Shown here: one piece after another, positions 1,472 through 64,000 of the stretch | Position numbering within the stretch: position 1 is the stretch's first letter | Layout of the letters: every line of letters starts with the position of its first letter | DNA from: Promethearchaeota archaeon | GTDB lineage: Archaea > Asgardarchaeota > Lokiarchaeia > Sigyniarchaeales > SOKP01 | Length of the DNA: 64,000 nucleotides | Assembly (NCBI GenBank): GCA_016926735.1 | Contig: JAFGOA010000187.1 | Coordinates: 7,334 to 71,333 of the forward strand | Direction: 5' to 3' | Made by a program: the position numbers and the translations under genes | Notes under the pieces: generated by a model | Told to the model about the DNA's origin: nothing | What the model saw: the letters and a program-made list of their open reading frames with translations, nothing else | The model's database searches: none

Positions 1472-2989
1472 ATGGATATTCAAATTGGCACAATTTTTAA
1501 TTATAATCAATTACCAGATGTGTCTTATTTTCCCTTTATTATTAATAAAAATAAAAAGACTATTGGTGTAAAAAAAGGTTTATTCGTTTGTACTGAATCT
1601 AAAGAAGGATTTTTAATAGGTATAATTGAAAAAATAATTCTTTTAAATGAATATTATTCAGATGCATTAACCATTAAGACTTATAATGATGATAAAAATA
1701 CAGATGTCCTAAAAGGATTATTTCCCAGTGAAGATTTTGAATTTGCATTAGCAATTGTTAAATGTTTAGGGATAATTGAATTTAATGATTCCACAAACAA
1801 AATAAGAAAAATTCATAGAATGACATATCCTGCTAATCCTGGAGGAAGTGTCTATTTTGTTGATGACAATATTATAAATGAATTTATTGGTATTGATATT
1901 AAAAATGGATTAAATTTAGGTGTTATTAAAGGATCTCATCTAAAAGCAATGGTTAATATTGATCGATTATTAAATAAACATTTCGCAATTCTTTCAATAT
2001 CTGGAGGTGGAAAAAGTTATCTTACTTCTATTTTAATAGAAGAATTATTATCAAAAAAGGATATGGTTCCATGTACAATATTAATTGATGTTCATGGAGA
2101 ATATTCTTATTTAAAAAAAATTAAAGATTTTACAAATTATATTGATATTCAAAATATAAGTTACTTTCAAATTGCTACTTCAAAAATATCTTCTTGGGCT
2201 TTTAAAAAATATCAACAACAAATTTCTCATGCTCAAGTAAGAGAATTATCAAAATATATCCAAAAATTAAATAAAAATGAGGATAAAAAAGGTAAATTTT
2301 CTTTATCAGATATTATTGAGCTTATTGAATCAGATACAGAAGGAAGTAAAAATACAAAACAAGCTCTAATTGGATGGCTCTCTGAGTTAGAACACTTACA
2401 TCTTTTTGGTCATATAGAAAATCCTAATTTAAAGAATTTAATAAAAAAAGGGAAATTGATTATATTTTCACTAGAGAATGAGACAAGTTTAAGAAAGAAG
2501 CAAATAATCATCGATTATTTATTTAATCGTTTATTTTCTCTTCGTAGAACAAATAAAATCCCTCCAATATTGTTAATTGTTGAAGAAGCTCATCAATTAT
2601 GCCCTGAAGCTTCTCAATCATCTGCAATTTCAAAAAGAATTATTGAAACAATAGCAAGAGAGGGGAGAAAATTTATGACCTGTCTTTGTTTAATAAGTCA
2701 ACGACCAAAAAAATTAAGTACAACAGCCCTATCACAAATGAATTCAAAAATGGTTTTAAATATTAAAAATCCTTATGATTTAAAACATTTAATGGATAGT
2801 TCAGAAGCAATTACAAAAGAAAATGCTAATATGATTTCCAGTTTAGGAGTAGGTGAAATGGTTTTAATGGGTAATGCTGTAAATTATCCAATCTTTATTG
2901 ATGTTAGAGAAAGAAACTTCAAATCAAATAATGAAAATTTATCACTTACAAATATATGTTTAAATTGGCAAGATAAAGATTTAAGTTGA
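1472..2989 (+). CDS. HerA/FtsK-like (DUF87) ATPase with N-terminal HAS-barrel-like region
   Basis: HFAILSISGGGKS Walker A, IDVHGEY, IVEEAH Walker B, IAREGRKF and ISQRP. Confidence 0.88.
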   Translation: MDIQIGTIFNYNQLPDVSYFPFIINKNKKTIGVKKGLFVCTESKEGFLIGIIEKIILLNEYYSDALTIKTYNDDKNTDVLKGLFPSEDFEFALAIVKCLGIIEFNDSTNKIRKIHRMTYPANPGGSVYFVDDNIINEFIGIDIKNGLNLGVIKGSHLKAMVNIDRLLNKHFAILSISGGGKSYLTSILIEELLSKKDMVPCTILIDVHGEYSYLKKIKDFTNYIDIQNISYFQIATSKISSWAFKKYQQQISHAQVRELSKYIQKLNKNEDKKGKFSLSDIIELIESDTEGSKNTKQALIGWLSELEHLHLFGHIENPNLKNLIKKGKLIIFSLENETSLRKKQIIIDYLFNRLFSLRRTNKIPPILLIVEEAHQLCPEASQSSAISKRIIETIAREGRKFMTCLCLISQRPKKLSTTALSQMNSKMVLNIKNPYDLKHLMDSSEAITKENANMISSLGVGEMVLMGNAVNYPIFIDVRERNFKSNNENLSLTNICLNWQDKDLS

Positions 2990-3344: not shown

Positions 3345-5582
3345 CTAAACAAATAATCCTTCTTGTTTTTCATCTTTAATTTTTCTACGTTTTAGTTTAG
3401 TAGCAAATTCTTCATACCATTTCAAAATTTCTGGTGTTATTGCAGGATGTACTTCTTCTTTTGATTCTTTAAAATGTTCAATAGAGACTTTACGAGCTCT
3501 TACATTCTCCCTAAGTGCTGTCATAGCGGCTTCTCGACACCAAGTTTCTAAATCTGCTCCAGAAAACCCTTCTGTCATCTCTACTAATTCTCTTAACTCT
3601 ACATTCGTAGCTAATGGCATATCTTTACTAAAAATCCTTAAAATTTCTAATCTTTCATCCTTATTTGGAGGTGGAACAAATAAAATACGATCGATTCTTC
3701 CAGGTCTAATTAAGGCAGGATCCAGAATATCTGGTCTATTTGTAGCAGCTATTACTACTATATCTTTCATAACCTCAAGCCCATCTAATTCTGTTAAAAA
3801 TTGCGATAATACTTTTTCAGTTACTCCTGAATCAGATGTATATCGTCCTCTGGTTGGAGCAATGGAATCAAATTCATCAAAAAATATAATACATGGAGCC
3901 GCCATTTTTGCTTTTCTAAATACTTCTCGAATTGCTTTTTCACTTTCTCCAACCCATTTCGATAATAATTCTGGTCCTTTTATTGAAATAAAATTTGCTT
4001 TACTTTCAGTAGCAATTGCTCTAGCTAATAAGGTTTTACCGCAGCCTGGAGGACCATATAATAGAACTCCCTTAGGAGGATCAATTCCCATACGTTTAAA
4101 GATATTAGGGTGAGATAATGGCCAATCTACAGCTTCTAATAATTTTTGTTTTAGGTCTTCTAATCCTCCAACACGAGACCAGTTTACATTTGGTATTTCA
4201 ACAAACACCTCTCTAATCCCTGAAGGAAGTACTTCTTTAAGAGCTTGTTCGAAATCCTCTCTTGTTACTTGAATTTGTTCTAAGAGTTCTGGATCGATAA
4301 TTTCAGATTCTAAATCTATACTTGGTAAATATCTTCTTAAAGCGGACATCGCAGCTTCCCTGCACACAGCAGAAATATCTGCTCCTACAAATCCATGTGT
4401 GATTTGTGAAAAGTCTTTTATTAATAATATTTTATTGTCAAGTGGCATATTTCTGGTGTGAATTTGAAAGATCTCTCTTCTTCCTTTTTCATTTGGAACT
4501 TTAATTTCAATTTCTCTATCAAATCTTCCTGGTCTTCTTAAAGCAGAATCTAAGCTATTAGGCCTATTTGTAGCTCCAATAACTATAACTCTTCCACGAC
4601 TATGTAATCCATCCATTAATGCTAATAATTGAGCAACAACTCTTCTTTCTACTTCTCCTGTAACTGTCTCTCTTTTAGGTGCTATAGCATCGATTTCATC
4701 AATAAATATTATAGATGGGCTTTTTTCTTCTGCTTCTATAAATATTTTTCTTAATTTCTTTTCTGATTCCCCATAAAATTTGCTCATTATTTCTGGACCA
4801 TTTATAGAAATAAAATTAGCTTCACTTTCATTTGCAACAACTCTTGCGAGTAGTGTTTTACCGCATCCTGGTGGACCACGTAGCAAGACACCCTTTGGTG
4901 GATCAATTCCTAAGCGCTTAAATAATGATGGATGTCTGAGTGGTAACTCTACCATTTCTCGAACTCTTTGTATTTCACGATCTAATCCTCCTACATCTTC
5001 ATAAGTGATATAACTTGCACTTTTTTCTTCCTCCTCAGTTATATGTTCACTAATACTAAGGGTTGTCTCTTGTTTTATAATACATACTCCTTTAGGTCTA
5101 AGATTAATAACCTTGAATGTTATTTCTCTACTAATTCCAATAGAAATTAAAATAATATCATCTAAAGTTACTGGGTAATTGCTGAGTTTTCTTTTAACAA
5201 ATGTTTCAAATCGAGGATTACTTCTTATTCTTACACTTGCAGGGGCTAATACCACATTCTGGGCAATTATTGCTTCTACTTTCTGTATTTCTACAGTATC
5301 ATCTATACTTGTTCCAGTATTTTTTCTTAAACGAGAATCTACTCGAACAATTCCTAAACCATTATCTTGTGGATAACTAGGCCAAGCAATACCTGCACTT
5401 TCTTTTTTACCTCTAAGGGCGATAACATCACCTGTCTGAATATTTAATTCTTCCATTGTTTTTGGATCTATTCTTATGATATTCCGTCCTATATCTCTTT
5501 TCTTCGCTTTTTGAATTCGAAGAGTTACTTTTGGAAGCTCCTCGTTATCTTTCTTATTATCTTTACTATCAGAACTAGTCAT
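3345..5582 (-). CDS. cdc48: CDC48/p97/VAT double AAA+ ATPase
   Basis: N-domain plus two AAA modules (GPPGCGKT twice; IDEID and FDEFD; RPGRFDR and RPGRIDR). Hydrophobic C-terminal tail GLFV. Confidence 0.97.
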
Positions 5583-8556: not shown

Positions 8557-8988
8557 CTATTTAGCTGCAAAAATTCTATTGATTAATGTTTTACCCGCTA
8601 GATTCCAATATTCTACTTGAGTTTGTGCCATTTCTGAAGGATTTTGCTGTAAATCTGATAATTTATTTTTCATTTCTTCATCTTTTGGCCAAGCTACATC
8701 AAAAGATTCATATGTTTCTAAATCCATAATATTAATAGTTACATCTTCAATAAAATTAATTTGAGCATTTCCTTTTATAATTTCTGGAACTTCTACCATA
8801 TGACCACTTGGAATGGTTAAAGAACGCTTATTATCATCAAAAACACCGACACATACAACACGAACTTTAGCATGTCCATGTTTTCCGGATTTACTCCGTT
8901 CTGTGCTCTTAATTATGCAAGCCTCATCTTCAACCATAATATAATTTCCAGTTTTTAACTTTTGTATTTCTTCTCTTCTGATTGAAAT
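8557..8988 (-). CDS. eif5a: Translation factor aIF5A, probable ATT start
   Basis: Hypusine motif SKSGKHGHAK. Frame extends upstream of ATG 8937 as (M)SIRREEIQKLKTGNYIMV, and ATT at 8988 lies 6 nt after AGGTGA. Confidence 0.93.
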   Translation of the reverse strand: MSIRREEIQKLKTGNYIMVEDEACIIKSTERSKSGKHGHAKVRVVCVGVFDDNKRSLTIPSGHMVEVPEIIKGNAQINFIEDVTINIMDLETYESFDVAWPKDEEMKNKLSDLQQNPSEMAQTQVEYWNLAGKTLINRIFAAK

Positions 8989-9247
8989 AATAATTCACCT
9001 ATCTTAAAATAAAAAAATTCCTTGATTTTATTTGAAAAATCCAATATTTTTTCTTTTTATTATAATCAAAATTAATAGTTATTCATATATTTTTTTAAAA
9101 AACATTTGAATTTTTCTCTCTGAAAAAAAATAATCCTTGCTTTTTTTGATTTGAATTTTTTAAAAATAATTTAAATAAATCTCCAAAAAAAGATTTATTT
9201 TAAAGAATTAATTAAATTAATTTAAAAATTAAATAACGCTGAATTTT

Positions 9248-31585: not shown

Positions 31586-33943
31586 TTATTCATTATTGTA
31601 TTTAAATCGACTTATTTTATAGATCTCTTGAGCCAATTTTTTCCCAATATTCTCAGTTTTCATAAGTTCGCCAATATCTGCATTGAAAATATTCTGTATT
31701 GTTCGTATTTCTTTTAATAGGCTTTTAGCTCTTAATATATTAATTCCCGGAATACTAGAAACAACATATTCTAATAAATAAGCCATATCAGATGGAGCTT
31801 TTTCAAATCTCAATTTGATATTACCTTTTGATGTTGATTGTTCTTTTTTTACCAAATGATATAAGAAAGTTGTAGTTTCATTGACATCTTTGGTTTTATA
31901 AATTGTAACACCTATTTTAAGAATTATGGACGAAATTGCTCCAAATATTGCATTTTCATTTATTGTAGTGTTCTCTAAAGGATCTCCTTCTAAGACAAGA
32001 ATTGCATTTTTGAAATTTTTTTTTAATTCAAAAAGCTCTTTAAATAATCTGCCATCTTTTATAGAATCCGTAAAGTCTTGAGCACTTTTTCTTTCTATTC
32101 CTGTATTTTCAGAAATAATATAATCTGCTATTTCAAGTTGTTCCAACTTTATATTTAAATTCATAAGAGATAGATTTCTAACAACCGGAGATGCTGTCTC
32201 TCTAGTATCACAAATAATTGTATACATTTCTTTATTTTCAGTATCTTCAGAAATAAATTCTGTCTTATTATGATTTATATTTCTGTTTTTAGGAATATTT
32301 TCTTTTTTTTTCTCTGATAAAAAACTCAAAAGGTCTTTTTGTTCCTTTTTCTGATTATTATTAATATCTAGTTCTTTGATTTTTTTTAAATTATTATACA
32401 TGTTTCTCTCTTTTTTTTTTTCTGCCCAATAATATCCTTCATCTCGAGTATTTTTCCCCATTAAAATATAAACTTTTCCTTCTTTCTTCCTTCCTGTCCG
32501 TCCTCTTCTTTGTATTGAGCGAATAGCACTAGGAACAACGTCGTAAAAAATGACCAAATCACATTCAGCTATATCTAAACCCTCTTCAGCTACACTTGTT
32601 CCTATGAGCGTGTTGTAAAAACCGTCTTTAAAATCTTTTAAGATATTTATTTGTTGCTTTTGTGTTAATCCTTTATCAGTTCCTTTATTTGCTTGACCAA
32701 TAAATTTATGAACTTTAATTACAGGATCATTTTTAAAAATTTTAACAATGTTATTTACAGAATCTCTATAATGACAGAAAACTAATATTCGAGATTCTGG
32801 AATCTGTTTTATTTGTTTATGAATAAGGTCTTTTAGTTTATCAATTTTAGGGTGGACTAAACCTTCTGATTGAATTTTATTTGTTAAATTTATTGCATTT
32901 TGTATGCTTCTATCTAAGAATAATTCTTTGAGAGATTTATTAGCAGTATTTTTTTTCAACTTTTCATTATTTTTTCCAAAATAATCTTTTAAAGCATTTA
33001 TTCCTTGAGTTTCCAATAATTCGATCATATGTGATAATCTTATAGCATTAGCCTGCAATTTTTTTGCTTTAAATAATTGAAATTTTTCTCCCTCATCATA
33101 AGTAGAATTAATTTGACGGCTAATTTGATTATTCAGATCCAATAAATCTTTACGAGTTATTTTATTTATATCCACGGAATTTATTAAATCAATATTTTTG
33201 AGGAATTTATATATAGATCTTAATTTATCAGTTAAAATCTTTAATATCTCCAAAAATTCTTCTGGAAGATCAACCTTAATCCACTCTTGTTCAATATTAT
33301 GAATATATGGCTTAACATCCGCATCCTTTTCTGTTCGAATTTCAATATTTTCAATAAATAAGTTTTCTTTTATTTCATTAATTTTTTCCTCAGTTGTCCC
33401 TGGACTTGCTGTAATACCAAGGATCTGGGAATTTTTTGATATATCTATATATTTTTTTGCAATGAAGCAATAAGCATAATCTCCTACTGCTCGATGGCAT
33501 TCATCAAATATAATTAAAGAAACATCTTTCAGAGAGTAGTTATTCGAAATTATATCATTTTGGAGTACTTGCGGGGTCATAAAAGATATTTTAATATCCT
33601 TCCAAATTTCTCTACGTTCTTCTGGAGAAATAGATCCTGTTATTGATTTTAAAGAATTTAAGTCAAGGGTAGTCAATTTCTGAAATGATTCATAATGTTG
33701 ATTTACAAGAGGTTTAGTAGGGGCGAGAAAAATAACTTTTGAATCCGGAAATTCTGCTAATCTATGAACTGCAAGCATAAGTGCTATTATTGTTTTACCT
33801 AAACCTGTTGGAATTATAACTAAAGAGTTATGATTTAAGCAATTGATAAAAATGTTTTCTTGATATAATCTTCTTATAACAAGATCTTTTTGTATTAATG
33901 GATGTGAAACATATGGATATTTATTTAAAGTCATACTATTCAA
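31586..33943 (-). CDS. hef: Hef helicase-nuclease (FANCM/XPF-like)
   Basis: PTGLGKT, DECH, TAS, QRRGRTGR, ERCC4 motif IERKS..D and C-terminal HhH. Confidence 0.95.
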   Translation of the reverse strand: MNSMTLNKYPYVSHPLIQKDLVIRRLYQENIFINCLNHNSLVIIPTGLGKTIIALMLAVHRLAEFPDSKVIFLAPTKPLVNQHYESFQKLTTLDLNSLKSITGSISPEERREIWKDIKISFMTPQVLQNDIISNNYSLKDVSLIIFDECHRAVGDYAYCFIAKKYIDISKNSQILGITASPGTTEEKINEIKENLFIENIEIRTEKDADVKPYIHNIEQEWIKVDLPEEFLEILKILTDKLRSIYKFLKNIDLINSVDINKITRKDLLDLNNQISRQINSTYDEGEKFQLFKAKKLQANAIRLSHMIELLETQGINALKDYFGKNNEKLKKNTANKSLKELFLDRSIQNAINLTNKIQSEGLVHPKIDKLKDLIHKQIKQIPESRILVFCHYRDSVNNIVKIFKNDPVIKVHKFIGQANKGTDKGLTQKQQINILKDFKDGFYNTLIGTSVAEEGLDIAECDLVIFYDVVPSAIRSIQRRGRTGRKKEGKVYILMGKNTRDEGYYWAEKKKERNMYNNLKKIKELDINNNQKKEQKDLLSFLSEKKKENIPKNRNINHNKTEFISEDTENKEMYTIICDTRETASPVVRNLSLMNLNIKLEQLEIADYIISENTGIERKSAQDFTDSIKDGRLFKELFELKKNFKNAILVLEGDPLENTTINENAIFGAISSIILKIGVTIYKTKDVNETTTFLYHLVKKEQSTSKGNIKLRFEKAPSDMAYLLEYVVSSIPGINILRAKSLLKEIRTIQNIFNADIGELMKTENIGKKLAQEIYKISRFKYNNE

Positions 33944-34149
33944 GATAAGAAATTATTATTAAATGGAATATAGTTATTATACAGGATTAAAAACTATATA
34001 AAATATTAGAGTCCTATGGAACACTTAAATCAAATTAATATCTTTTTAATAAATTATTTTTATAATTTCAAAAAATATTATTTTTCTATCGAGGAAACCT
34101 TAAGGTAAAAGTTTATTTCAAATAGGCGATTCTAAATTAATAATATTAA

Positions 34150-34316
34150 GCGCGGATAGTTTAGCCCGGTTATAACGACTTATTACTTTGGAGGACCATA
34201 GTAAAACGTTAAACGCTCACACCGTGTAAATAATTATTCTTTATTAATTATCACGACGGTCGAGGGTTCAACTTAGAAGTTCATCTCGAATTTCATTGGA
34301 AATCCCTCTCCGCGCA
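34150..34316 (+). tRNA. tRNA-Val(CAC) with three BHB introns (positions 28/29, 44/45, 59/60)
   Basis: Exons 34150-34179, 34213-34228, 34258-34272 and 34303-34316 join to a 75-nt cloverleaf: GCGCGGA TA GTTT AGCCCGGTTA TAAC G ACACG CTCACAC CGTGT AGGTC GAGGG TTCAACT CCCTC TCCGCGC A. No encoded CCA. Confidence 0.93.
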
Positions 34317-34443
34317 TTATTTAATAACATATCAATCTAGAATGAACTTAACTTTAACTGATATATTCATTATTTTTAATAATAAAAATTAAATGAAATG
34401 TTATATTTCATAATATAACTACTCTTTCTAGGTATTATTAAAA

Positions 34444-34746
34444 GTGTCAAGTTTCTTAGAATCTCGAGAATTAAGAAAGAAATATAAAGAAGTAAGAGAA
34501 TATGTAAAGATTGGTCCTATCTTCTTAACACGTTATGAAAAAGCCAGAATTGTTGGTGCAAGAGCACTTCAAATTAGTTTTGGTGCACCAATTCTTGTTG
34601 AAAAACCAAATGATATGATTGATCCAATAAGAATCGCTCAATTAGAACTTAAGTCAGGAATTCTTCCTCTAACAATCAGAAGAGAAATGCCAAGTGAAGA
34701 ATTTCAAGATGTTCCAATTAATAAATTAATACTAAAAAAGGATTAA
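34444..34746 (+). CDS. rpo6: RNA polymerase subunit Rpo6/K
   Basis: LTRYEKARIVGARALQIS.GAP and LPLTIRR. Confidence 0.97.
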   Translation: MSSFLESRELRKKYKEVREYVKIGPIFLTRYEKARIVGARALQISFGAPILVEKPNDMIDPIRIAQLELKSGILPLTIRREMPSEEFQDVPINKLILKKD

Positions 34747-37995: not shown

Positions 37996-39141
37996 ATGGC
38001 AGAAGAAGAAAGTTTTTTAAACGCAAAGGCCTTAGTTGTTGATAATGGTACTGGTATTTCTAAGAATGGATTTGCAGGTGAAGATCAACCTAGATCTGTA
38101 TTTCCTACTCTAATTGGGTATCCTAAATATGAATCCATCATGACTGATGTTGAACACTATACCCGTGAGTATTATATTGGGGAAGAGGCTATGCAACTAA
38201 AAGGTGTTCTTAAATTAATGTTCCCAGTCGAACATGGTATTATTGAGGATTGGACCGCTATGGAAAAGATATGGCATTATACATTCTATACAGATCTAAG
38301 AATTGATCCTTCCGAACATCCTGTACTCTTAACTGAAGCACCATTAAATCCAAGACCAAATAGAGAGAAAATGGCAGAAATAATGTTTGAAACATTTAAC
38401 ACTCCTGCTCTCTATGTAGCAATGCAAGCTGTATTATCTTTGTATGCTTCTGGTCGTACAACTGGGTGTGTTATTGATATTGGTGATGGTGTATCACACG
38501 TTGTCCCTATATTTGAAGGATTTGCTTTAAGTCATGCAATTCAAAGAATAGATTTAGCTGGAAGAGATATTACAACCTATCTACAAAGATTACTTAGACA
38601 AAAAGGGTATTCTTTTACGACATCCGCAGAAAAGGAAATTGTACGCGATATTAAAGAGAAATTATGTTATGTAGCTATTGATCCTGAGAAAGAAATGATG
38701 CTTTCCAAGAAAGTTGCAGGAATGGAAAAGAGCTATATGTTACCTGATGGGGAAACGATTAATGTTGGTGTTGAACGATTCTTAGCACCAGAATGCTTCT
38801 TTAATCCATCTGTTATTGGAAAAGAATTAGAGCCTTTGGATGATGTAATTGTAAATGCTATATCCGAATGTGATGTTGATCTTAGACGTGATTTATACAG
38901 CAACATAGTCTTATCTGGTGGATCTACAATGTTCCCAGGTATAAAAGAACGATTAACTAAAGAAATTAAAGAGCAAATTCCTGAATCAGTCGATGTTAAA
39001 ATCATTGCTCCACCAGAAAGAATGTATTCTGTCTGGATTGGTGGATCAATTCTAAGTTCTCTTAAAACATTCCATAGAATGTGGGTAACTAGGCGCGAAT
39101 ATAAAGAGATGGGGCCTCAAGTAATTCATAGATGCTTCTAA
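37996..39141 (+). CDS. Eukaryote-like actin (Lokiactin type)
   Basis: [70 protein letters not shown] and IHRCF end. Confidence 0.97.
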
Positions 39142-40234: not shown

Positions 40235-42175
40235 TTGCCTACTATGGATAGACGATTCATTGATGAGGAAGGTAAAGTATTAATGTTAGGAAATGAAGCA
40301 ATTATAAGGGGATGTTTAGAAGTAGGTGTAAGCTTTGTTTCCCAATATCCTGGAACACCAACAAGTGATATAGGTGAGACCTTTCAGAAATTACTGAGAG
40401 AACAACCGGAATTACAAAATTATTTAGTACATCATTGGGGTATCAATGAAGCTGTAGCCTCCTCTGAATGTGCGGGAGCCGCCTGGACAGGTTGTAAATC
40501 ATTAAATCCAATGAAACATGTAGGATTAAATGTTGCAAGTGATCCTTTAAGTGTTATTGCTCTTAATGGACCCAACCCTGGGGCAATGGTAATATTAGTT
40601 GGTTCTGATCCTGGGAGTTTGGGATCTCATCAAGAACAAAATGAACGATTTTATACTTGGATGTTTCATTTTCCTTGCTTTGAGCCTCATACACCTCAAG
40701 ATTGTAAAGATTATATCAAACTAGCTTTCAAATTATCTGAACAATATGATACTGTTTTTGAAATAAGAACTTCAACAAGAAGTGCCCACTCTAGAGGTTT
40801 TGTTAATTTAGAGCCTATAATAAAAGGAAAGAAAAAAGGAGAATTTATAAGAAATATTCCAAAATATAATTCTCTCCCTCCTCATGCAATTAATAATCAC
40901 ATAAGACTTTACGAAAGAATTGAAAAGCTAAGAGAAATTATACCAAAATTAGGAGTAAATAAAGTAATAGAAGGAAATAATAAAATAGGGATTATAACTA
41001 GTGGAATGCCTTATGGATATACTTTGGAAGCATTAGATCAATTAGGATTAAATGATGTACCTATATTAAAATTAGGACTAATCTATCCATTAAATTATAA
41101 TGAAATTTCAGATTTTCTTAAAGATTTAGATAAAGTTATAATAATAGAAGAATTAGAACCCTTTTTAGAAGTAAAAATATCAGAAATTGCACATAAAAAG
41201 GCAATTAATGTTGAAATAATCGGTGAAAAATATTTTCCTAAATCAAATGAATTTTCTACGGGATTAGTTGCATCATGTTTAGCAAAAATATTTAAAAAAG
41301 AACCAAGTAATCAAATGATAAAAGCTATTGATTATTTTAATTCATATAAAAACATAATTCCAAGTAGGTTTCCCTCTTTTTGTGCTGGATGTCCAGAAAG
41401 AGCAACGCTCTATACAATTCTTAAAGCAACTAATCAGTTAGAAAATACAGTAGTATGTGGTGATATTGGATGTTTTGTAATGAGTTTTTTTCCTCCTCAA
41501 CAATGCAGTGATTTAGTAATTTGTATGTCAGGTGGACTAAGTGCGGCAATCGGTATGTCTACAAAAACAGATCAAAAAGTTATTGCCTATATGGGAGACT
41601 CAACTTTTTTACACACTGGAATGAGTCCATTAGCTGAAGCGGCAAGTTATGATTCAAATATACTATTATTTATCTTTGAAAATAGTTGGACAGCTATGAC
41701 TGGCCATCAACCAGTACTAGGATTGATTGAAAAAAGAATATCTATTGAAAAAATCTGTAAAGCAATTGGAGTACAATGGCTCAGAGTTGAAGATTCTTAT
41801 AACCCAAAAAAATTAATCTCAAGTATAGAGAAAGCATTTGAGACTAAGGGGCTTAAAGTAATTATAGTAAAAAGAGAATGTGCTCTACAGGCTCATAGAT
41901 GGAGAATGAAACAAAGAAGAGAATTAAATAATCAAGGCAAAAGAACACAAGAGGTTATGTATCATATTACGGGGTGTCAGATGTGTTATGAATGCGCTCG
42001 TATATTGAGTTGTCCTGCAATAAGAAAAATTGAAAAAGATGGATATGAAACCATGCAAATTGACGATGATAGATGTGTAAAATGTGGTGTCTGTTATGAA
42101 GTTTGTCCTAATGGAGCCATTCATAAATCTATTATTAATGCTTTAGATGAAGAAGTTCCCTTTCGAGAACTCTGA
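40235..42175 (+). CDS. iorA: Indolepyruvate:ferredoxin oxidoreductase alpha subunit
   Basis: MLGNEA, YPGTP, MKHVGLNVA.D, FCAGCP, GDIGC, GDSTFLH.G, TAMTG.Q and C-terminal 2x[4Fe-4S] cysteines. Confidence 0.93.
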   Translation: MPTMDRRFIDEEGKVLMLGNEAIIRGCLEVGVSFVSQYPGTPTSDIGETFQKLLREQPELQNYLVHHWGINEAVASSECAGAAWTGCKSLNPMKHVGLNVASDPLSVIALNGPNPGAMVILVGSDPGSLGSHQEQNERFYTWMFHFPCFEPHTPQDCKDYIKLAFKLSEQYDTVFEIRTSTRSAHSRGFVNLEPIIKGKKKGEFIRNIPKYNSLPPHAINNHIRLYERIEKLREIIPKLGVNKVIEGNNKIGIITSGMPYGYTLEALDQLGLNDVPILKLGLIYPLNYNEISDFLKDLDKVIIIEELEPFLEVKISEIAHKKAINVEIIGEKYFPKSNEFSTGLVASCLAKIFKKEPSNQMIKAIDYFNSYKNIIPSRFPSFCAGCPERATLYTILKATNQLENTVVCGDIGCFVMSFFPPQQCSDLVICMSGGLSAAIGMSTKTDQKVIAYMGDSTFLHTGMSPLAEAASYDSNILLFIFENSWTAMTGHQPVLGLIEKRISIEKICKAIGVQWLRVEDSYNPKKLISSIEKAFETKGLKVIIVKRECALQAHRWRMKQRRELNNQGKRTQEVMYHITGCQMCYECARILSCPAIRKIEKDGYETMQIDDDRCVKCGVCYEVCPNGAIHKSIINALDEEVPFREL

Positions 42176-42364: not shown

Positions 42365-43279
42365 ATGGATATACCGAATAAAAAACCTTCAAAAAAAATA
42401 TGCTATTTCCTTGATACTGATGAAACTGCTTCTCCTTTTGACATCAATATGGCTTATGATGCGGGATTTGATGTGGTTGTCCCGTTTAATAATATGACAG
42501 CCGATAAAGTCCCAAGACTGATACAAGACGCTATTTTTTCCAGAAAACCAAATGCTTCTACTGCCTTTTTTATTGGGGGAGAGGATACAAAAGAAGCAGA
42601 TAAAATTGTTAATAAAGTCTTGGAATCATTTGTTCCTCCTTTTGAATGCCCTGTGATTGTTGATCCACGAGGATCACATACTACTGCTTCAGCAATAATT
42701 GCTAAAATTATAAAGATAGCTAAAGAACACGGAATTGAAAATTTATCTGGGAAAAAAATGGTAATTTTAGGAGCAACTGGTCCAGTAGGAAAGATTGGAG
42801 CTCTTCTTTCGGCTAATCTTAATTGCAATACAGTCATTACCTCTAGAAGAGAACAATATATAATGACATTAGCGAAAGAACTTAATGAGAACACAAATAA
42901 TGGTGCGTCTGAAATAATTGGAGCTGTTGGAGCTACAGATGATGATAAATATAATGTTTTAAAAGATGCAGATTTAATTTGCTCAGTTGCGAAAGCTGGT
43001 ATTGAAATGATCTCAAAAGAACTACTAGAAAAATTACCTCCTAAAAAAATAGTCGTAGATATTAATTTAGTCCCTCCCTATGGTATCTATGGTCTAAAAC
43101 CTAATTATGATAATGAGGAACTAATATCAGGAATTTTTGGGATAGGTGCTCTAGCAATTGGGAATCTCAAATCTAAAATTGAAAAGGCTATGTTAATAGA
43201 AGCATCTAATACAACAGGGAGAAAAATATTTGATTATAAAAATGCATTTAATTCAGCTAAATTGTTACTTAATATTTGA
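42365..43279 (+). CDS. NAD(P)-dependent methylene-H4MPT/H4F dehydrogenase (MtdA/B-like), copy 1
   Basis: SPFDINMAYDAG, AIFSR, DPRGSHTTA, GATGPVG, DINLVPPYG and GALAIG. Confidence 0.88.
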   Translation: MDIPNKKPSKKICYFLDTDETASPFDINMAYDAGFDVVVPFNNMTADKVPRLIQDAIFSRKPNASTAFFIGGEDTKEADKIVNKVLESFVPPFECPVIVDPRGSHTTASAIIAKIIKIAKEHGIENLSGKKMVILGATGPVGKIGALLSANLNCNTVITSRREQYIMTLAKELNENTNNGASEIIGAVGATDDDKYNVLKDADLICSVAKAGIEMISKELLEKLPPKKIVVDINLVPPYGIYGLKPNYDNEELISGIFGIGALAIGNLKSKIEKAMLIEASNTTGRKIFDYKNAFNSAKLLLNI

Positions 43280-43667
43280 TTAATTTCATTTTCTTATATA
43301 TTTCTTTGCCAGCAATTTTTACTTTGTTGTCTATATATTACTTTTAAGATTAGTTTTTCCGTATGGTATTAAATTTAGATACTTCTGTTTTAGGTGGAGA
43401 TAATTTTTTTAATTGGTGTTTATTTTATAGAATATTTACTTTTTTAAAAAGTATATATTATATTTCATAATCACTAAGAATTGTTACATTATACAAATAT
43501 AATGCTAGATTTTAATATTAATAAGATTGATTTCCAAATAGTATAAGACTAAAAGAGAATATTAGATGATCTATTATGATCAAAAGATTAATATACCCAA
43601 ACATTATATTATAACTTGTGATAGTTACTTTTTTCTTTTTTTTCTCAAAATGAGGTAGATCATTAGG

Positions 43668-44618
43668 ATGGAACTATTAAAATTAAAATCAAATGAAAAG
43701 ACTATTAATATGATTAAAAAAGATAAAACAGCTAATATATGCTATTTTTTTGATACTGATGAATATGCTTCTCCTTTTGATATCAATATGGCTTATGATT
43801 CAGGTTATGATATTGTCATTCCTTTCAATCATATGAGTAGTAAAAAAGTTCCTAAGCTGGTTCAAGATGCTATTTTTTCCAGACGGAAATATAATTCTTC
43901 AATTTTCTTTATCGGGGGAAGTGATACGCAGGAAGCAGATTTAATCGCTAAAAATATTTTTAATTCTCTGGTACCACCATTTGAATATCCTATTGTCTTA
44001 GATCCCCGAGGATCTCATTCTACAGCCTCGGCCATAGCTGCTAAAACTCTTAGTATTTTAGGAAATATTAATAACAAAAAGATTGTAATTTTAGGAACGG
44101 GTCCAGTTGCTAGAATGGCTGCTTTATTAGGTGCTAAACTTAATGCTAAAATTAATATCGTGGAAACATGGAATAAAGTGGATTTAAAACAATTTAATGA
44201 AATTATAAAAAATCTAAAAAAGGAGTGTAAACAAGAAGAGAATAACCGAATTAATGGAAATTGTGCTTTTTCTGAAGAAGATCGTTTGGTAATAATAAAA
44301 GATGCAGATATTATTTGGTCACTGGCGGCACCTGGAATACAGATCCTTTCAGAGGAAATTATGAGTAATTTAAACAACAGTCAATTAGTAATTGATGCAA
44401 ATTTAGTACCTCCCTATGGAATTTATGGATTAAAACCTAAAGATGATAATAAAGAAATATATCCTGGAATTTTTGGAGTTGGAGCATTAGTAATTGGAAA
44501 ATTAAAATATAAGATTGAGTCTTTGATATTAAAAAAAGCAATGAATTCTGCAACAAAAACACTTTATGATTATAATTATGGATTTGAAATAGCATTGAAA
44601 TTATTAAATTTAAATTAA
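43668..44618 (+). CDS. MtdA/B-like dehydrogenase, copy 2
   Basis: SPFDINMAYDSG, DPRGSHSTA, GTGPVA and DANLVPPYG. Confidence 0.85.
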   Translation: MELLKLKSNEKTINMIKKDKTANICYFFDTDEYASPFDINMAYDSGYDIVIPFNHMSSKKVPKLVQDAIFSRRKYNSSIFFIGGSDTQEADLIAKNIFNSLVPPFEYPIVLDPRGSHSTASAIAAKTLSILGNINNKKIVILGTGPVARMAALLGAKLNAKINIVETWNKVDLKQFNEIIKNLKKECKQEENNRINGNCAFSEEDRLVIIKDADIIWSLAAPGIQILSEEIMSNLNNSQLVIDANLVPPYGIYGLKPKDDNKEIYPGIFGVGALVIGKLKYKIESLILKKAMNSATKTLYDYNYGFEIALKLLNLN

Positions 44619-44908
44619 TTTTTTTTTAACCTTTTTAGTATATTATTTTTTATTATCTAATTATATACAAATAATTGTATAATAATCAAAAATGAATTTT
44701 GAAATTAACAAATTATTACCTATTATAAATATATCCATGTTTGTTTATCAGCTTGATATGATTGATAATAATAATAAAAAGCACATATCAGATCATAAAA
44801 TATATGATAATGATCAAAACATTTATATATTAAAATCATTTCTACATCTTTTGGGGAATATATTTTAAAGAATTTAGCCTGTATTTTAAAAAGAGGTGAG
44901 CTTATAAA

Positions 44909-45862
44909 ATGGAATTATTGGAAATAAAACCTGATAAAAGATTAATTAAAGTTATAGAAAAAGAAAAACAAACTGATATTATATGCTATTTTTTTGATAC
45001 AGATGAATATGCCTCTCCATTTGACATAAATATGGCTTATGATGCTGGAATAGATAATGTTTTACCTTATAGTAATGTGAAAGCTAATTATGTTCCAAAA
45101 TTAATAAATCAACTTATTTTTTCTAGAAAAATATGTTCTAGAACAATCTTTTTTGTTGGAGGAAGCAAAACAAATGAAGCTGATTTGATTGCTAAAAATA
45201 TTTATCATTCATTAGTAGCTCCTTTCAATTTTCCTATCATAATTGATCCTAGAGGGTCTCATACAACTGCCTCAGCGATTATAGCAACAATGATTAAAGC
45301 TATAAAAAATTTAAAGAATAAAAATATTGTAATATTAGGAACCGGTCCTACAGCAAGAATATTAGCAATATTAGCAGCCAGATTAAAAGCAAAAATAGTT
45401 ATGTTCGAAACATTGAAAAACGTTAATCAAAATTATATAAACGATCTCAATTTTGAATTAAGTGAAAAATTAGCTCAAGATTTTAAAAATCTAACTATTT
45501 ATTGCAATTCTAACGATATTATTGACCGATTTGACCTAATCAAAAATGCAGATATAATTTGTTCTCTTGTGGCACCTGGAGTAGAGATTTTACCTGTTCA
45601 TATAATTAAAAAATTAAAGAGCCCAAAATTAATTATTGATGGAAATATGGTACCTCCTTATGGTGTGTGGGGATTAAATCCAAATGATAATAATAAAGAA
45701 ATTTATCCAGGGATTTTTGGTATTGGCGCATTAATCATAGGTAATTTAAAGTATAAAATAGAATCTCTTATTTTGAAAGAAGCCATGAAATCTAGTATAA
45801 AAAGAATTTTTAATTATAATTACGCATTTAATATCGCTTTAAAATTACTTAATTTAAAATAA
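44909..45862 (+). CDS. MtdA/B-like dehydrogenase, copy 3
   Basis: SPFDINMAYDAG, DPRGSHTTA, GTGPTA and DGNMVPPYG. SD GAGGTGA upstream. Confidence 0.85.
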   Translation: MELLEIKPDKRLIKVIEKEKQTDIICYFFDTDEYASPFDINMAYDAGIDNVLPYSNVKANYVPKLINQLIFSRKICSRTIFFVGGSKTNEADLIAKNIYHSLVAPFNFPIIIDPRGSHTTASAIIATMIKAIKNLKNKNIVILGTGPTARILAILAARLKAKIVMFETLKNVNQNYINDLNFELSEKLAQDFKNLTIYCNSNDIIDRFDLIKNADIICSLVAPGVEILPVHIIKKLKSPKLIIDGNMVPPYGVWGLNPNDNNKEIYPGIFGIGALIIGNLKYKIESLILKEAMKSSIKRIFNYNYAFNIALKLLNLK

Positions 45863-47360: not shown

Positions 47361-48065
47361 ATGAGCTTTAAAGAAACTGATATTATTAATATTGTTGTAG
47401 CAGGAACTGCCGGACAGGGAGTTATTTCAGTTAAACGATTAATTGAATTTGCAGCTCAAAAAGCAGGCGCAGAGCGAATTCTTGGAAGTGAAATCTTTAT
47501 TTAGTTAGAATAAAGACATTTAATGCATGGACTCGCTCAGAGAGAAGGTGCTATAACAAGTCATACACGATATCAAAAGAAATTGTTCAATAATCCTCGT
47601 AAAGATTTGCAATCTTCATTAATCTGCTATGGAGATGCGGATATTTATATTTGTCTCGAACCAGTTGAAGCTTTGAGAAGAGGTATTTTTGCTTCGGAAA
47701 AGACAACTTTTGTAATAAATTCAAGAACAATTCCTGGTGTAATGATAACTGCTGGTCTGGAAAAATACCCATCATTAGATAAAATTAAAGAAACTTTGAT
47801 AGGTAATGCTAAAGATGTTTATTTTATAAATGCTACTGAAATATCTTTAGAATATTTCAAACAAAATCAGCAAGTAAATATAATAATGTTAGGTTTTGCT
47901 ATATCAACTAATAAATTACCTTTTATCGAAATAGATCATTATGAAGATGTAATTAAAGAATGGCTAAAAGATCCTGAAATAAATATTAAAGCATTGCATT
48001 TAGGTATCGAAAAAGGTAAAGAAATAATCGAAAAAATGAATTTAAATCCAGACAAGATAGAATAA
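47361..48065 (+). CDS. iorB: Indolepyruvate:ferredoxin oxidoreductase beta subunit, two exons (47361-47492 + 47523-48065), 224 aa if spliced
   Basis: Exon 1 IVVAGTAGQGVI...ILGSE and exon 2 MHGLAQREG...LEPVEALR...NIIMLG are in the same frame, separated by a 30-nt stop-containing insert. Confidence 0.88.
47493..47522 (+). other. Candidate BHB-type intron in iorB mRNA
   Basis: Central helix AGTG/CATT, bulges AA|A and TA|A, inner stem TCTTTATT/AATAAAGA. In-frame TAG and TAA lie inside. Confidence 0.8.
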
Positions 48066-63280: not shown

Positions 63281-64000
63281 ATTATAAGAGAGAATAATAG
63301 AAAAAAGGAATTTATAGAAAAAATTAGATTTTATATTAAAATCTTTGAAGATAAGAGAAATAAAAATTCCCTTTTAAGTCAAAAAAAGGGTATTGCTTAC
63401 ACTCCTCTTAAAATTATTGATATAATGGTAAAAAAATGTTTTATTTTATATTTTAATCATATGACAAAACCAAAAATATTTACCAAAACAAAAGAACAAA
63501 ATATCAACAATGTAAAAGAAATTATTGTAAAACATCCACAATTTAAATCTCTCTTCAAAGTCGGATTAGATAAATTAAAAATATTAGATCCTGCTTGTGG
63601 TTCGGGCAGATTTTTATTGCAAATAGCAAAATATATTTTTACTCTTTATCAATCAATAGAACCTTCTCCTAATATTTTTATTTTAAAAAAAAAAATAATT
63701 ATGAATAACATTTTTGGGATTGATTCTGATCAAGAAGCATGTTATATATCTAAATTAAGATTATTTCAATGGATCCTCCCAGATAATAACAATTTTCAAT
63801 TAAATAATTGTAATAAGTTTTCAAAAAATAATGATTCCCTTAGAAATATGGAACGAATTTTAAAAGTAATTGATTTTAAAATAAATGTTGAAAATAAGGA
63901 TTTTTTAGTAGATGATCAAAAAAAAGATCATTTTCATATTATAATAGGTAACCCTCCTTATATAGAAAATAAAAAAATAAAAAATGATACATATAAAAAG
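63281..64000 (+). CDS. N6-adenine DNA methyltransferase (Eco57I/type IIG-like), 3' end outside window; start uncertain
   Basis: Open frame with GIAYTP, KILDPACGSGRFL, IFGID and IIGNPPY. The first ATG (63425) lies downstream of GIAYTP. Confidence 0.85.
   Translation, partial: MIRENNRKKEFIEKIRFYIKIFEDKRNKNSLLSQKKGIAYTPLKIIDIMVKKCFILYFNHMTKPKIFTKTKEQNINNVKEIIVKHPQFKSLFKVGLDKLKILDPACGSGRFLLQIAKYIFTLYQSIEPSPNIFILKKKIIMNNIFGIDSDQEACYISKLRLFQWILPDNNNFQLNNCNKFSKNNDSLRNMERILKVIDFKINVENKDFLVDDQKKDHFHIIIGNPPYIENKKIKNDTYKK

Follow-up and report, generated by a model that had tools for sequence, protein, structure and literature searches.

Can a 167-nt interval in which standard programs find no tRNA encode a working one, and how would it be interrupted and matured? 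The interval lies within the stretch of DNA analysed here (64,000 nt in length; hereafter the window), at 34150-34316 on the forward strand. The first-pass annotation had read it as a tRNA-Val(CAC) gene with three introns, none of them at position 37/38, and had warned that standard finders may overlook it. That warning was borne out by the programs we used. ARAGORN reported no tRNA in the entire 64-kb window, where the gene is unspliced, and its intron option returned nothing for the gene either. Rfam models gave nothing over the window at gathering scores, and nothing in a permissive scan at E values up to 1. With E values up to 10, the region 34050-34420 had no tRNA match and three weak non-tRNA matches only (mir-90, SpF36 and snoZ161_228; E 0.19-6.7), which we rejected as chance, being far under their gathering scores.

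Once three segments are cut out, a tRNA is found. Scripted slicing of the interval yielded the four exons and three introns listed in Table 1, and the 75 nt that remain were called tRNA-Val(CAC) by ARAGORN, in agreement with the identity first proposed and with the coordinates, sizes and positions (28/29, 44/45 and 59/60) given for the introns. The standard numbering of these positions is correct because two additional D-loop bases offset the raw positions by two. In the spliced 75-mer the acceptor stem (7/7), the anticodon stem (5/5) and the T stem (5/5) are fully paired, which is what cutting at all six sites had been expected to give; the D stem has three pairs and a T13:T22 mismatch. Conserved tRNA bases seen in the sequence are U8, A14, G18-G19, U33, TTCAA at T54-A58 and the discriminator A73, and CCA is not encoded at the 3′ end. 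The spliced product has a GC content of 58.7%, against 26.6% for the whole window; by part, the exons have 53-71%, the introns 17-30% and the flanks 15-17%. A split or permuted tRNA gene is ruled out, as the four exons follow one another in order on a single strand within 167 nt. We also dropped C/D-box guide RNAs within the introns on grounds of size, 29-33 nt being too short to hold one.

Table 1. Parts of the tRNA-Val(CAC) gene and its candidate promoter in the window. L001, L002 and L003 are the orthologous loci of the three relatives described in the text.
Feature	Coordinates	Strand	Length (nt)	Observation
Candidate archaeal promoter: A-rich stretch and TATA-like TTTATTT, -38 to -32 relative to the mature 5′ end	34107..34124	+		Putative; read from the sequence
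Exon 1: acceptor 5′ strand, D arm, positions 26-28	34150..34179	+	30	Identical in L001
Intron 1: position 28/29, HBh′-type relaxed BHB without outer helix	34180..34212	+	33	Same-position intron in 4/4 orthologs
Exon 2: positions 29-44, includes anticodon CAC	34213..34228	+	16	16-mer identical in L001, L002 and L003
Intron 2: position 44/45, strict hBHBh′	34229..34257	+	29	H 4/4; missing from L002 and L003 (flanking exons contiguous there)
Exon 3: positions 45-59, variable loop, T stem 5′ strand, most of T loop	34258..34272	+	15	Sliced, then ARAGORN
Intron 3: T loop, 59/60, hBH-like, T stem as outer helix	34273..34302	+	30	Missing from L002
Exon 4: position 60, T stem 3′ strand, acceptor 3′ strand, discriminator A73	34303..34316	+	14	Read from the sequence

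The gene lies in a 500-nt gap between genes for a Hef-type helicase/ERCC4 protein (31586-33943, reverse strand) and RpoK/Rpb6 (34444-34746, forward strand). Searching a genome collection with the Hef protein, we found three relatives: L001 (Hef 93% identical; labelled uncultured archaeon), L002 (67%; labelled Promethearchaeota) and L003 (66%; labelled Candidatus Hermodarchaeota). A tRNA-Val(CAC) gene adjoins Hef in all three. The order RpoK-tRNA-Hef-GTPase is kept in L001 and L002, and tRNA-Hef-GTPase in L003, where the tRNA gene (2043-2175, forward strand) is inverted relative to Hef and still lies between the contig start and Hef-GTPase. L001 shares all three introns (28/29, 44/45 and 59/60) with the window and differs from it at 3 of 167 positions. 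The L002 gene has the intron at 28/29 alone (32 nt) and reaches 42.4 bits for the Rfam tRNA model, against a gathering score of 29, and the L003 gene has introns at 28/29 (31 nt) and 58/59 (30 nt). In the unspliced loci of the three relatives ARAGORN finds no tRNA, and all four orthologs, when spliced by script, are called tRNA-Val(cac). In L003, exon 2 runs straight into exon 3; natural intron-less orthologs set the boundaries of introns 2 and 3, with no need of a splice motif. The promoter candidate has the same letters in L001, and L002 has a similar AAAATTTAATTCATATT at a comparable distance.

The window also encodes actin (Pfam E 3e-133), two Ras-family GTPases and a Roadblock/LC7 protein, together with Cdc48, FEN1, SRP54, MutS, MutL, Hef and RpoK. 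Because the phyla of both named relatives, Promethearchaeota and Hermodarchaeota, belong to the kingdom Promethearchaeati, that is, the Asgard archaea, the host is, on the evidence of its genes, an AT-rich Asgard archaeon and not a member of the Thermoproteales. Three other features of the window stood out. The actin protein (37996-39141, forward strand; 1828-2970 in L002) is 99.7% identical to that of L002 and 100% identical to that of L001, a striking contrast in constraint with the neighbouring Hef, which is just 67% identical to that of L002. The aIF5A gene (8557-8994, reverse strand), read from its first ATG, begins at position 18 of the Pfam profile; its frame is open for 19 codons further upstream, contains no ATG, GTG or TTG there, and begins right after GGTGA. 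A search for a detached exon of aIF5A found none, and the arrangement suggests a non-canonical start codon such as ATT rather than a missing exon. Finally, a gene with an Eco57I/MmeI-type N6-adenine methyltransferase domain (63425-64000, forward strand) continues past the window end.

We then compared the intron boundaries with the BHB rule, which we took to require, on both sides, a 4-nt helix strand and then a 3-nt bulge with the cut behind its second base. The helices and bulges first described for the three introns, the relaxed inner side of intron 3 included, were reproduced in each detail. Intron 1 has the central helix (H) AACG/CGTT and bulges AC^T and AA^A (^, cut site); it has no outer helix, and its inner side consists of one pair, a mismatch and five pairs. 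Intron 2 has H CGTG/CACG, bulges TA^A and AC^G, two outer pairs and seven inner pairs. Intron 3 has H TTCA/TGGA, with one T.G wobble, and bulges AC^T and AA^T; the 5-bp T stem serves as its outer helix, and a 2x2 internal loop precedes its six inner pairs. Each of the three introns thus has a flanking helix (h or h′) on one side or both: intron 1 the inner one, intron 2 both, and intron 3 the outer one plus an interrupted inner one. Intron 1, without an outer helix, and intron 3, with a 2x2 loop by the bulge, are non-canonical substrates.

How much weight can such motifs bear? A complete helix H was found at 5,355 of 200,000 random window boundaries (2.68%), against three of three introns, and a complete H with a flanking helix of at least two pairs at 1,588 of 200,000 (0.79%). 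When both boundaries of an intron were slid jointly from -8 to +8, all four H pairs formed at shift 0 only, and this was true of each intron. At intron 3, where the product sequence permits either 59/60 or 60/61, the four pairs form at 59/60 only; other splice registers in the T loop gave 1-2 of the four pairs and were rejected. Over the four orthologous genes, H is complete (4/4) at nine of nine intron boundaries. Taken by itself the motif says little, a strict BHB-only scan giving 313 matches in the real window versus 288-362 in ten simulated windows. A lenient acceptor-plus-T-arm scan found this gene alone in the window and one ortholog per relative locus; we did not count it as evidence, because it also gave one match in 7 of 40 simulated random windows. 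Since both scans are unspecific, the signal lies in the motif coinciding with independently fixed boundaries, not in the motif alone.

The substitutions among the orthologs bear on the same point. The differences between L001 and the window fall in one intron hairpin loop, in one bulge (position 59) and in the inner helix of intron 3, the last being a G.U to A-U change. Among the four mature tRNAs, 7 of the 21 cloverleaf pairs vary, five of them by compensatory change on both sides, and none is broken by substitution; the only non-standard pair, T13:T22, is invariant in all four. The helix H of intron 1 reads AACG/CGTT in the window and L001, GACG/CGTT in L002 and GACG/CGTC in L003, so that its first pair is A-U, G.U and G-C, respectively. 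As read from four sequences, the pattern is one of selection on both the gene and its splice helices; the covariation rests on few sequences because only three relatives were found.

The unspliced precursor has a minimum free energy (MFE) of -48.9 kcal/mol (z = -4.04), and none of 200 shuffled sequences, whose mean was -32.4, folded equally well. The centroid fold contains the acceptor stem, the T stem, the H helix of intron 1 and three intron hairpins. Forcing all three BHBs gave -43.1 kcal/mol, compared with -48.9 for the MFE structure, in which RNAfold favoured a 4x4 internal loop over the two bulges at intron 2.

We propose the following order of events in maturation. A single precursor of about 170 nt would be made, with the TATA-like element some 35 nt upstream as its probable promoter. 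As folding shows, the cloverleaf is barred in this precursor, which instead forms the acceptor and T stems together with three intron hairpins, because the central helices of the introns occupy tRNA bases of the D stem, the anticodon stem and the T loop. That of intron 1 takes up positions 23-26 (three D-stem bases and G26), that of intron 2 the 3′ strand of the anticodon stem, and that of intron 3 T-loop bases 54-57. An EndA of the (αβ)2 type carrying the L1 loop would then cut after the second base of each 3-nt bulge and, by analogy with archaeal BHB splicing, an RtcB-type ligase would join the four exons, with CCA added later. The D and anticodon arms would form only after excision.

The splicing enzyme is assumed in this scheme, because the window holds no EndA or RtcB gene: of the 69 ORFs of 90 aa or longer, 60 were scanned, and neither an EndA (tRNA_int_endo) nor an RtcB domain turned up in them. 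Asgard archaea carry an (αβ)2 EndA with the L1 loop (Kaneta 2018, PMC5829648), and two EndA paralogues are present in 44 of 60 Asgard genomes (bioRxiv 10.64898/2026.10.13.758758). Only enzymes that bear the loop cleave HBh′ and hBH motifs, and one such substrate is an hBH intron at position 59/60 (PMC5829648). By the literature, removal by a broad-specificity (αβ)2 EndA is thus most likely, and it is reasonable to suppose, on the basis of PMC5829648, that this organism has such an endonuclease.

Taken together, we put at roughly 0.9 the probability that an AT-rich Asgard archaeon has, at 34150-34316 (+), a functional tRNA-Val(CAC) gene with BHB introns at 28/29, 44/45 and 59/60 that are predicted to be excised by EndA. 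A decaying pseudogene, which has gathered three insertions and no longer makes a working tRNA, is favoured by the unspliced gene going unseen by ARAGORN and Rfam and by the relaxed motifs at two of the three introns, and another Val(CAC) gene may exist elsewhere in the genome. Decay, however, does not sit with helices that are all intact once the introns are excised, with three insertions at the precise sites where two 3-nt bulges flank a 4-bp helix, or with the five compensatory pair changes over the orthologs. Moreover, L001, with its Hef 93% identical, retains all three introns and has changes at neutral or pair-improving sites only. We consider decay highly unlikely. Chance resemblance, in which AT-rich intergenic DNA yields a cloverleaf when three segments may be freely chosen, draws some substance from the 7 of 40 random windows that satisfied the lenient acceptor-plus-T-arm criterion alone. 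It is refuted by the same gene standing at the syntenic site in all three relatives found, one of which (L002) exceeds the Rfam gathering score; the exons, at 53-71% GC, also stand out from a window of 26.6% GC, and the cloverleaf is complete with its conserved bases. This explanation is close to negligible.

A different doubt concerns the route of excision in a gene that does function: intron 1, intron 3 or both might be removed by another RNase, or at different boundaries followed by trimming, and not by EndA at the predicted sites. The missing outer helix of intron 1 and the interrupted inner helix of intron 3 point in this direction. So do reports that canonical motifs are missing from a sizeable minority of the intervening sequences in Asgard archaea, and that no newly identified one has been demonstrated to be spliced in an Asgard cell (bioRxiv 10.64898/2026.10.13.758758). 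Yet both introns have four of four H pairs and the correct 3-nt bulges, other T-loop registers reach 1-2 of the four pairs, and the H helix of intron 1 covaries. In addition, loop-bearing (αβ)2 EndA cuts HBh′ and hBH motifs in vitro, one of them at 59/60 (PMC5829648). We regard this route, too, as highly unlikely, and EndA excision of all three introns as the preferred reading.

The distribution of the introns bears on their history. Intron 1 is old, being common to relatives whose Hef is about 66% identical, and introns 2 and 3 are limited to the window's own close lineage. The T-loop intron of L003 has H GTTC/GAAC, with four of four pairs in register 58/59 only. Aligned by MAFFT with intron 3 of the window, it gave scattered matches and offset ends, and the two sequences are unrelated. 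Their positions, 58/59 and 59/60, would fit separate insertions at neighbouring sites as well as the sliding of an intron; the finding of adjacent, unrelated introns suggests repeated independent insertion at a hot spot. When the introns were compared by blastn-short with the window and the three relatives' loci (about 101 kb, with no other tRNA gene there), the only hits below E 1e-10 among the matches listed were the introns themselves and their L001 ortholog.

The first-pass annotation had also thought an intron of similar size plausible in iorB, and this proposal gained support. The iorB-type gene (POR gamma domain; 47361-48065, forward strand) contains a 30-nt in-frame insert, 47493-47522, with two stop codons. 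By the BHB rule the insert is of the HBh′ type: its central helix is AGTG/CATT, in which one pair is G.U, its bulges are AA^A and TA^A, and eight or more pairs make up its inner helix. It is also among the matches of the strict BHB-only scan, which is unspecific (313 versus 288-362 simulated). When the stops were read through as X, the match to Pfam POR, which otherwise covers profile positions 29-173, grew to 2-173. The gene has 465 homologs at E up to 1e-10, of which the best listed are from Asgard archaea, lack any interruption and measure about 216 aa, with 69-76% identity. We aligned seven named homologs, taken from 120 listed of the 465. The ten residues encoded by the insert are a gap in all seven of these Asgard proteins, and GSE^MHGLAQREG (^, junction), which is contiguous and invariant in the seven, is restored by the predicted iorB junction. 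A PDB sequence search with the read-through protein gave no matches. The insert is probably an mRNA intron spliced by EndA, to judge from these sequence features. The known precedent for BHB introns in mRNA is crenarchaeal cbf5 (PMC2738675), and BHB introns in protein-coding genes of Asgard archaea were not mentioned in the titles and abstract openings listed by a literature search.

The surroundings of iorB are unusual as well. The genes iorA and iorB are normally adjacent. Here iorA (40235-42175) and iorB are set apart by three tandem paralogs (42365-45862) with a methylene-tetrahydromethanopterin dehydrogenase N-terminal domain and by a TauE-family exporter on the opposite strand.

With a tRNA-Val series of one, two and three introns, a possible T-loop hot spot and a probable iorB mRNA intron 13 kb away, we lean slightly towards the view that this Loki/Hermod-type Asgard archaeon uses BHB splicing far past the anticodon-loop intron. 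If true, the iorB case would extend EndA-type mRNA splicing, as in crenarchaeal cbf5, to the archaeal relatives of eukaryotes. The main value of the locus lies in the intron series at one orthologous site and in the three motif classes within one precursor. The four orthologs make a clean natural experiment, in which the same gene, with the same neighbours, has one, two or three introns, and one 167-nt precursor offers strict BHB, HBh′ and hBH substrates for testing the range of Asgard EndA. The gene also represents a type that is essential for translation and unseen by ARAGORN and Infernal/Rfam here, so that what look like gaps in the tRNA sets of Asgard archaea can be artefacts, a point made earlier by Kaneta 2018 (PMC5829648) and in bioRxiv 10.64898/2026.10.13.758758.

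How does this gene compare with known multi-intron systems? The first-pass annotation had described tRNAs with three introns as rare and as known chiefly from Thermoproteales. This is out of date: Asgard cases have been published, and such genes can no longer be called rare beyond that order (PMC11291895; bioRxiv 10.64898/2026.10.13.758758). In three complete Asgard genomes, introns occur in 92-95% of tRNA genes, and a majority of the tRNA genes have several (Valentin-Alvarado 2024, PMC11291895). A survey of 90 Asgard genomes found up to five intervening sequences per gene, with an average of 0.91 in Asgard archaea outside its focal families (Goswami 2026, bioRxiv 10.64898/2026.10.13.758758). 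Heavily interrupted Asgard tRNA genes are thus already documented, and this gene is a further example and no longer a surprise. The Goswami 2026 census covers genes detected by tRNAscan-SE only, and neither a Loki or Hermod taxon nor tRNA-Val is mentioned in its main text. Its tRNAs share with ours the superphylum, several short non-canonical BHB introns per gene, T-arm and anticodon-stem positions, and lineage-specific presence and absence between orthologous loci. Similar intron copies elsewhere are lacking there; here none of note turned up among the matches listed for about 101 kb, which had no other tRNA gene. They differ in intron length, with a median of 22-23 nt compared with 29-33 nt here, and in host, since the nearest labelled relatives here are Promethearchaeota and Hermodarchaeota MAGs and not the three focal families. 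That survey also describes many lineage-specific gains and hardly any intron families common to tRNA types; the one-to-three series at our locus fits such repeated recent gains.

In Thermoproteales, multiple-intron tRNAs are prominent, with three introns at most (PMC4033280, PMC4090602). As in that order, there are up to three non-canonical BHB introns per gene (Sugahara 2008, cited in PMC4033280 and PMC4090602) and a reliance, here presumed, on an (αβ)2 EndA with a crenarchaeal-type loop (PMC4033280, PMC4090602). Unlike those hosts, ours belongs to another phylum and has a very different genome composition. Thermoproteales introns also form sequence families across tRNA types, by transposition, whereas we saw none of note in about 101 kb, among the matches listed. 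For intron 3, the known hBH intron at 59/60 has the same position and motif class and is likewise cut only by loop-bearing, broad-specificity EndA; in contrast, it comes from a DPANN archaeon whose EndA is of the ε2 type, and its gene is not a triple-intron one (PMC5829648). A further known case is the tRNA-Sec of Lokiarchaeota, with its 31-nt T-loop intron (Mariotti 2016, PMC4989117): it is likewise a Loki-type Asgard tRNA with a T-loop intron of about 30 nt, of a different isotype and with one intron described, where the tRNA-Val gene has three.
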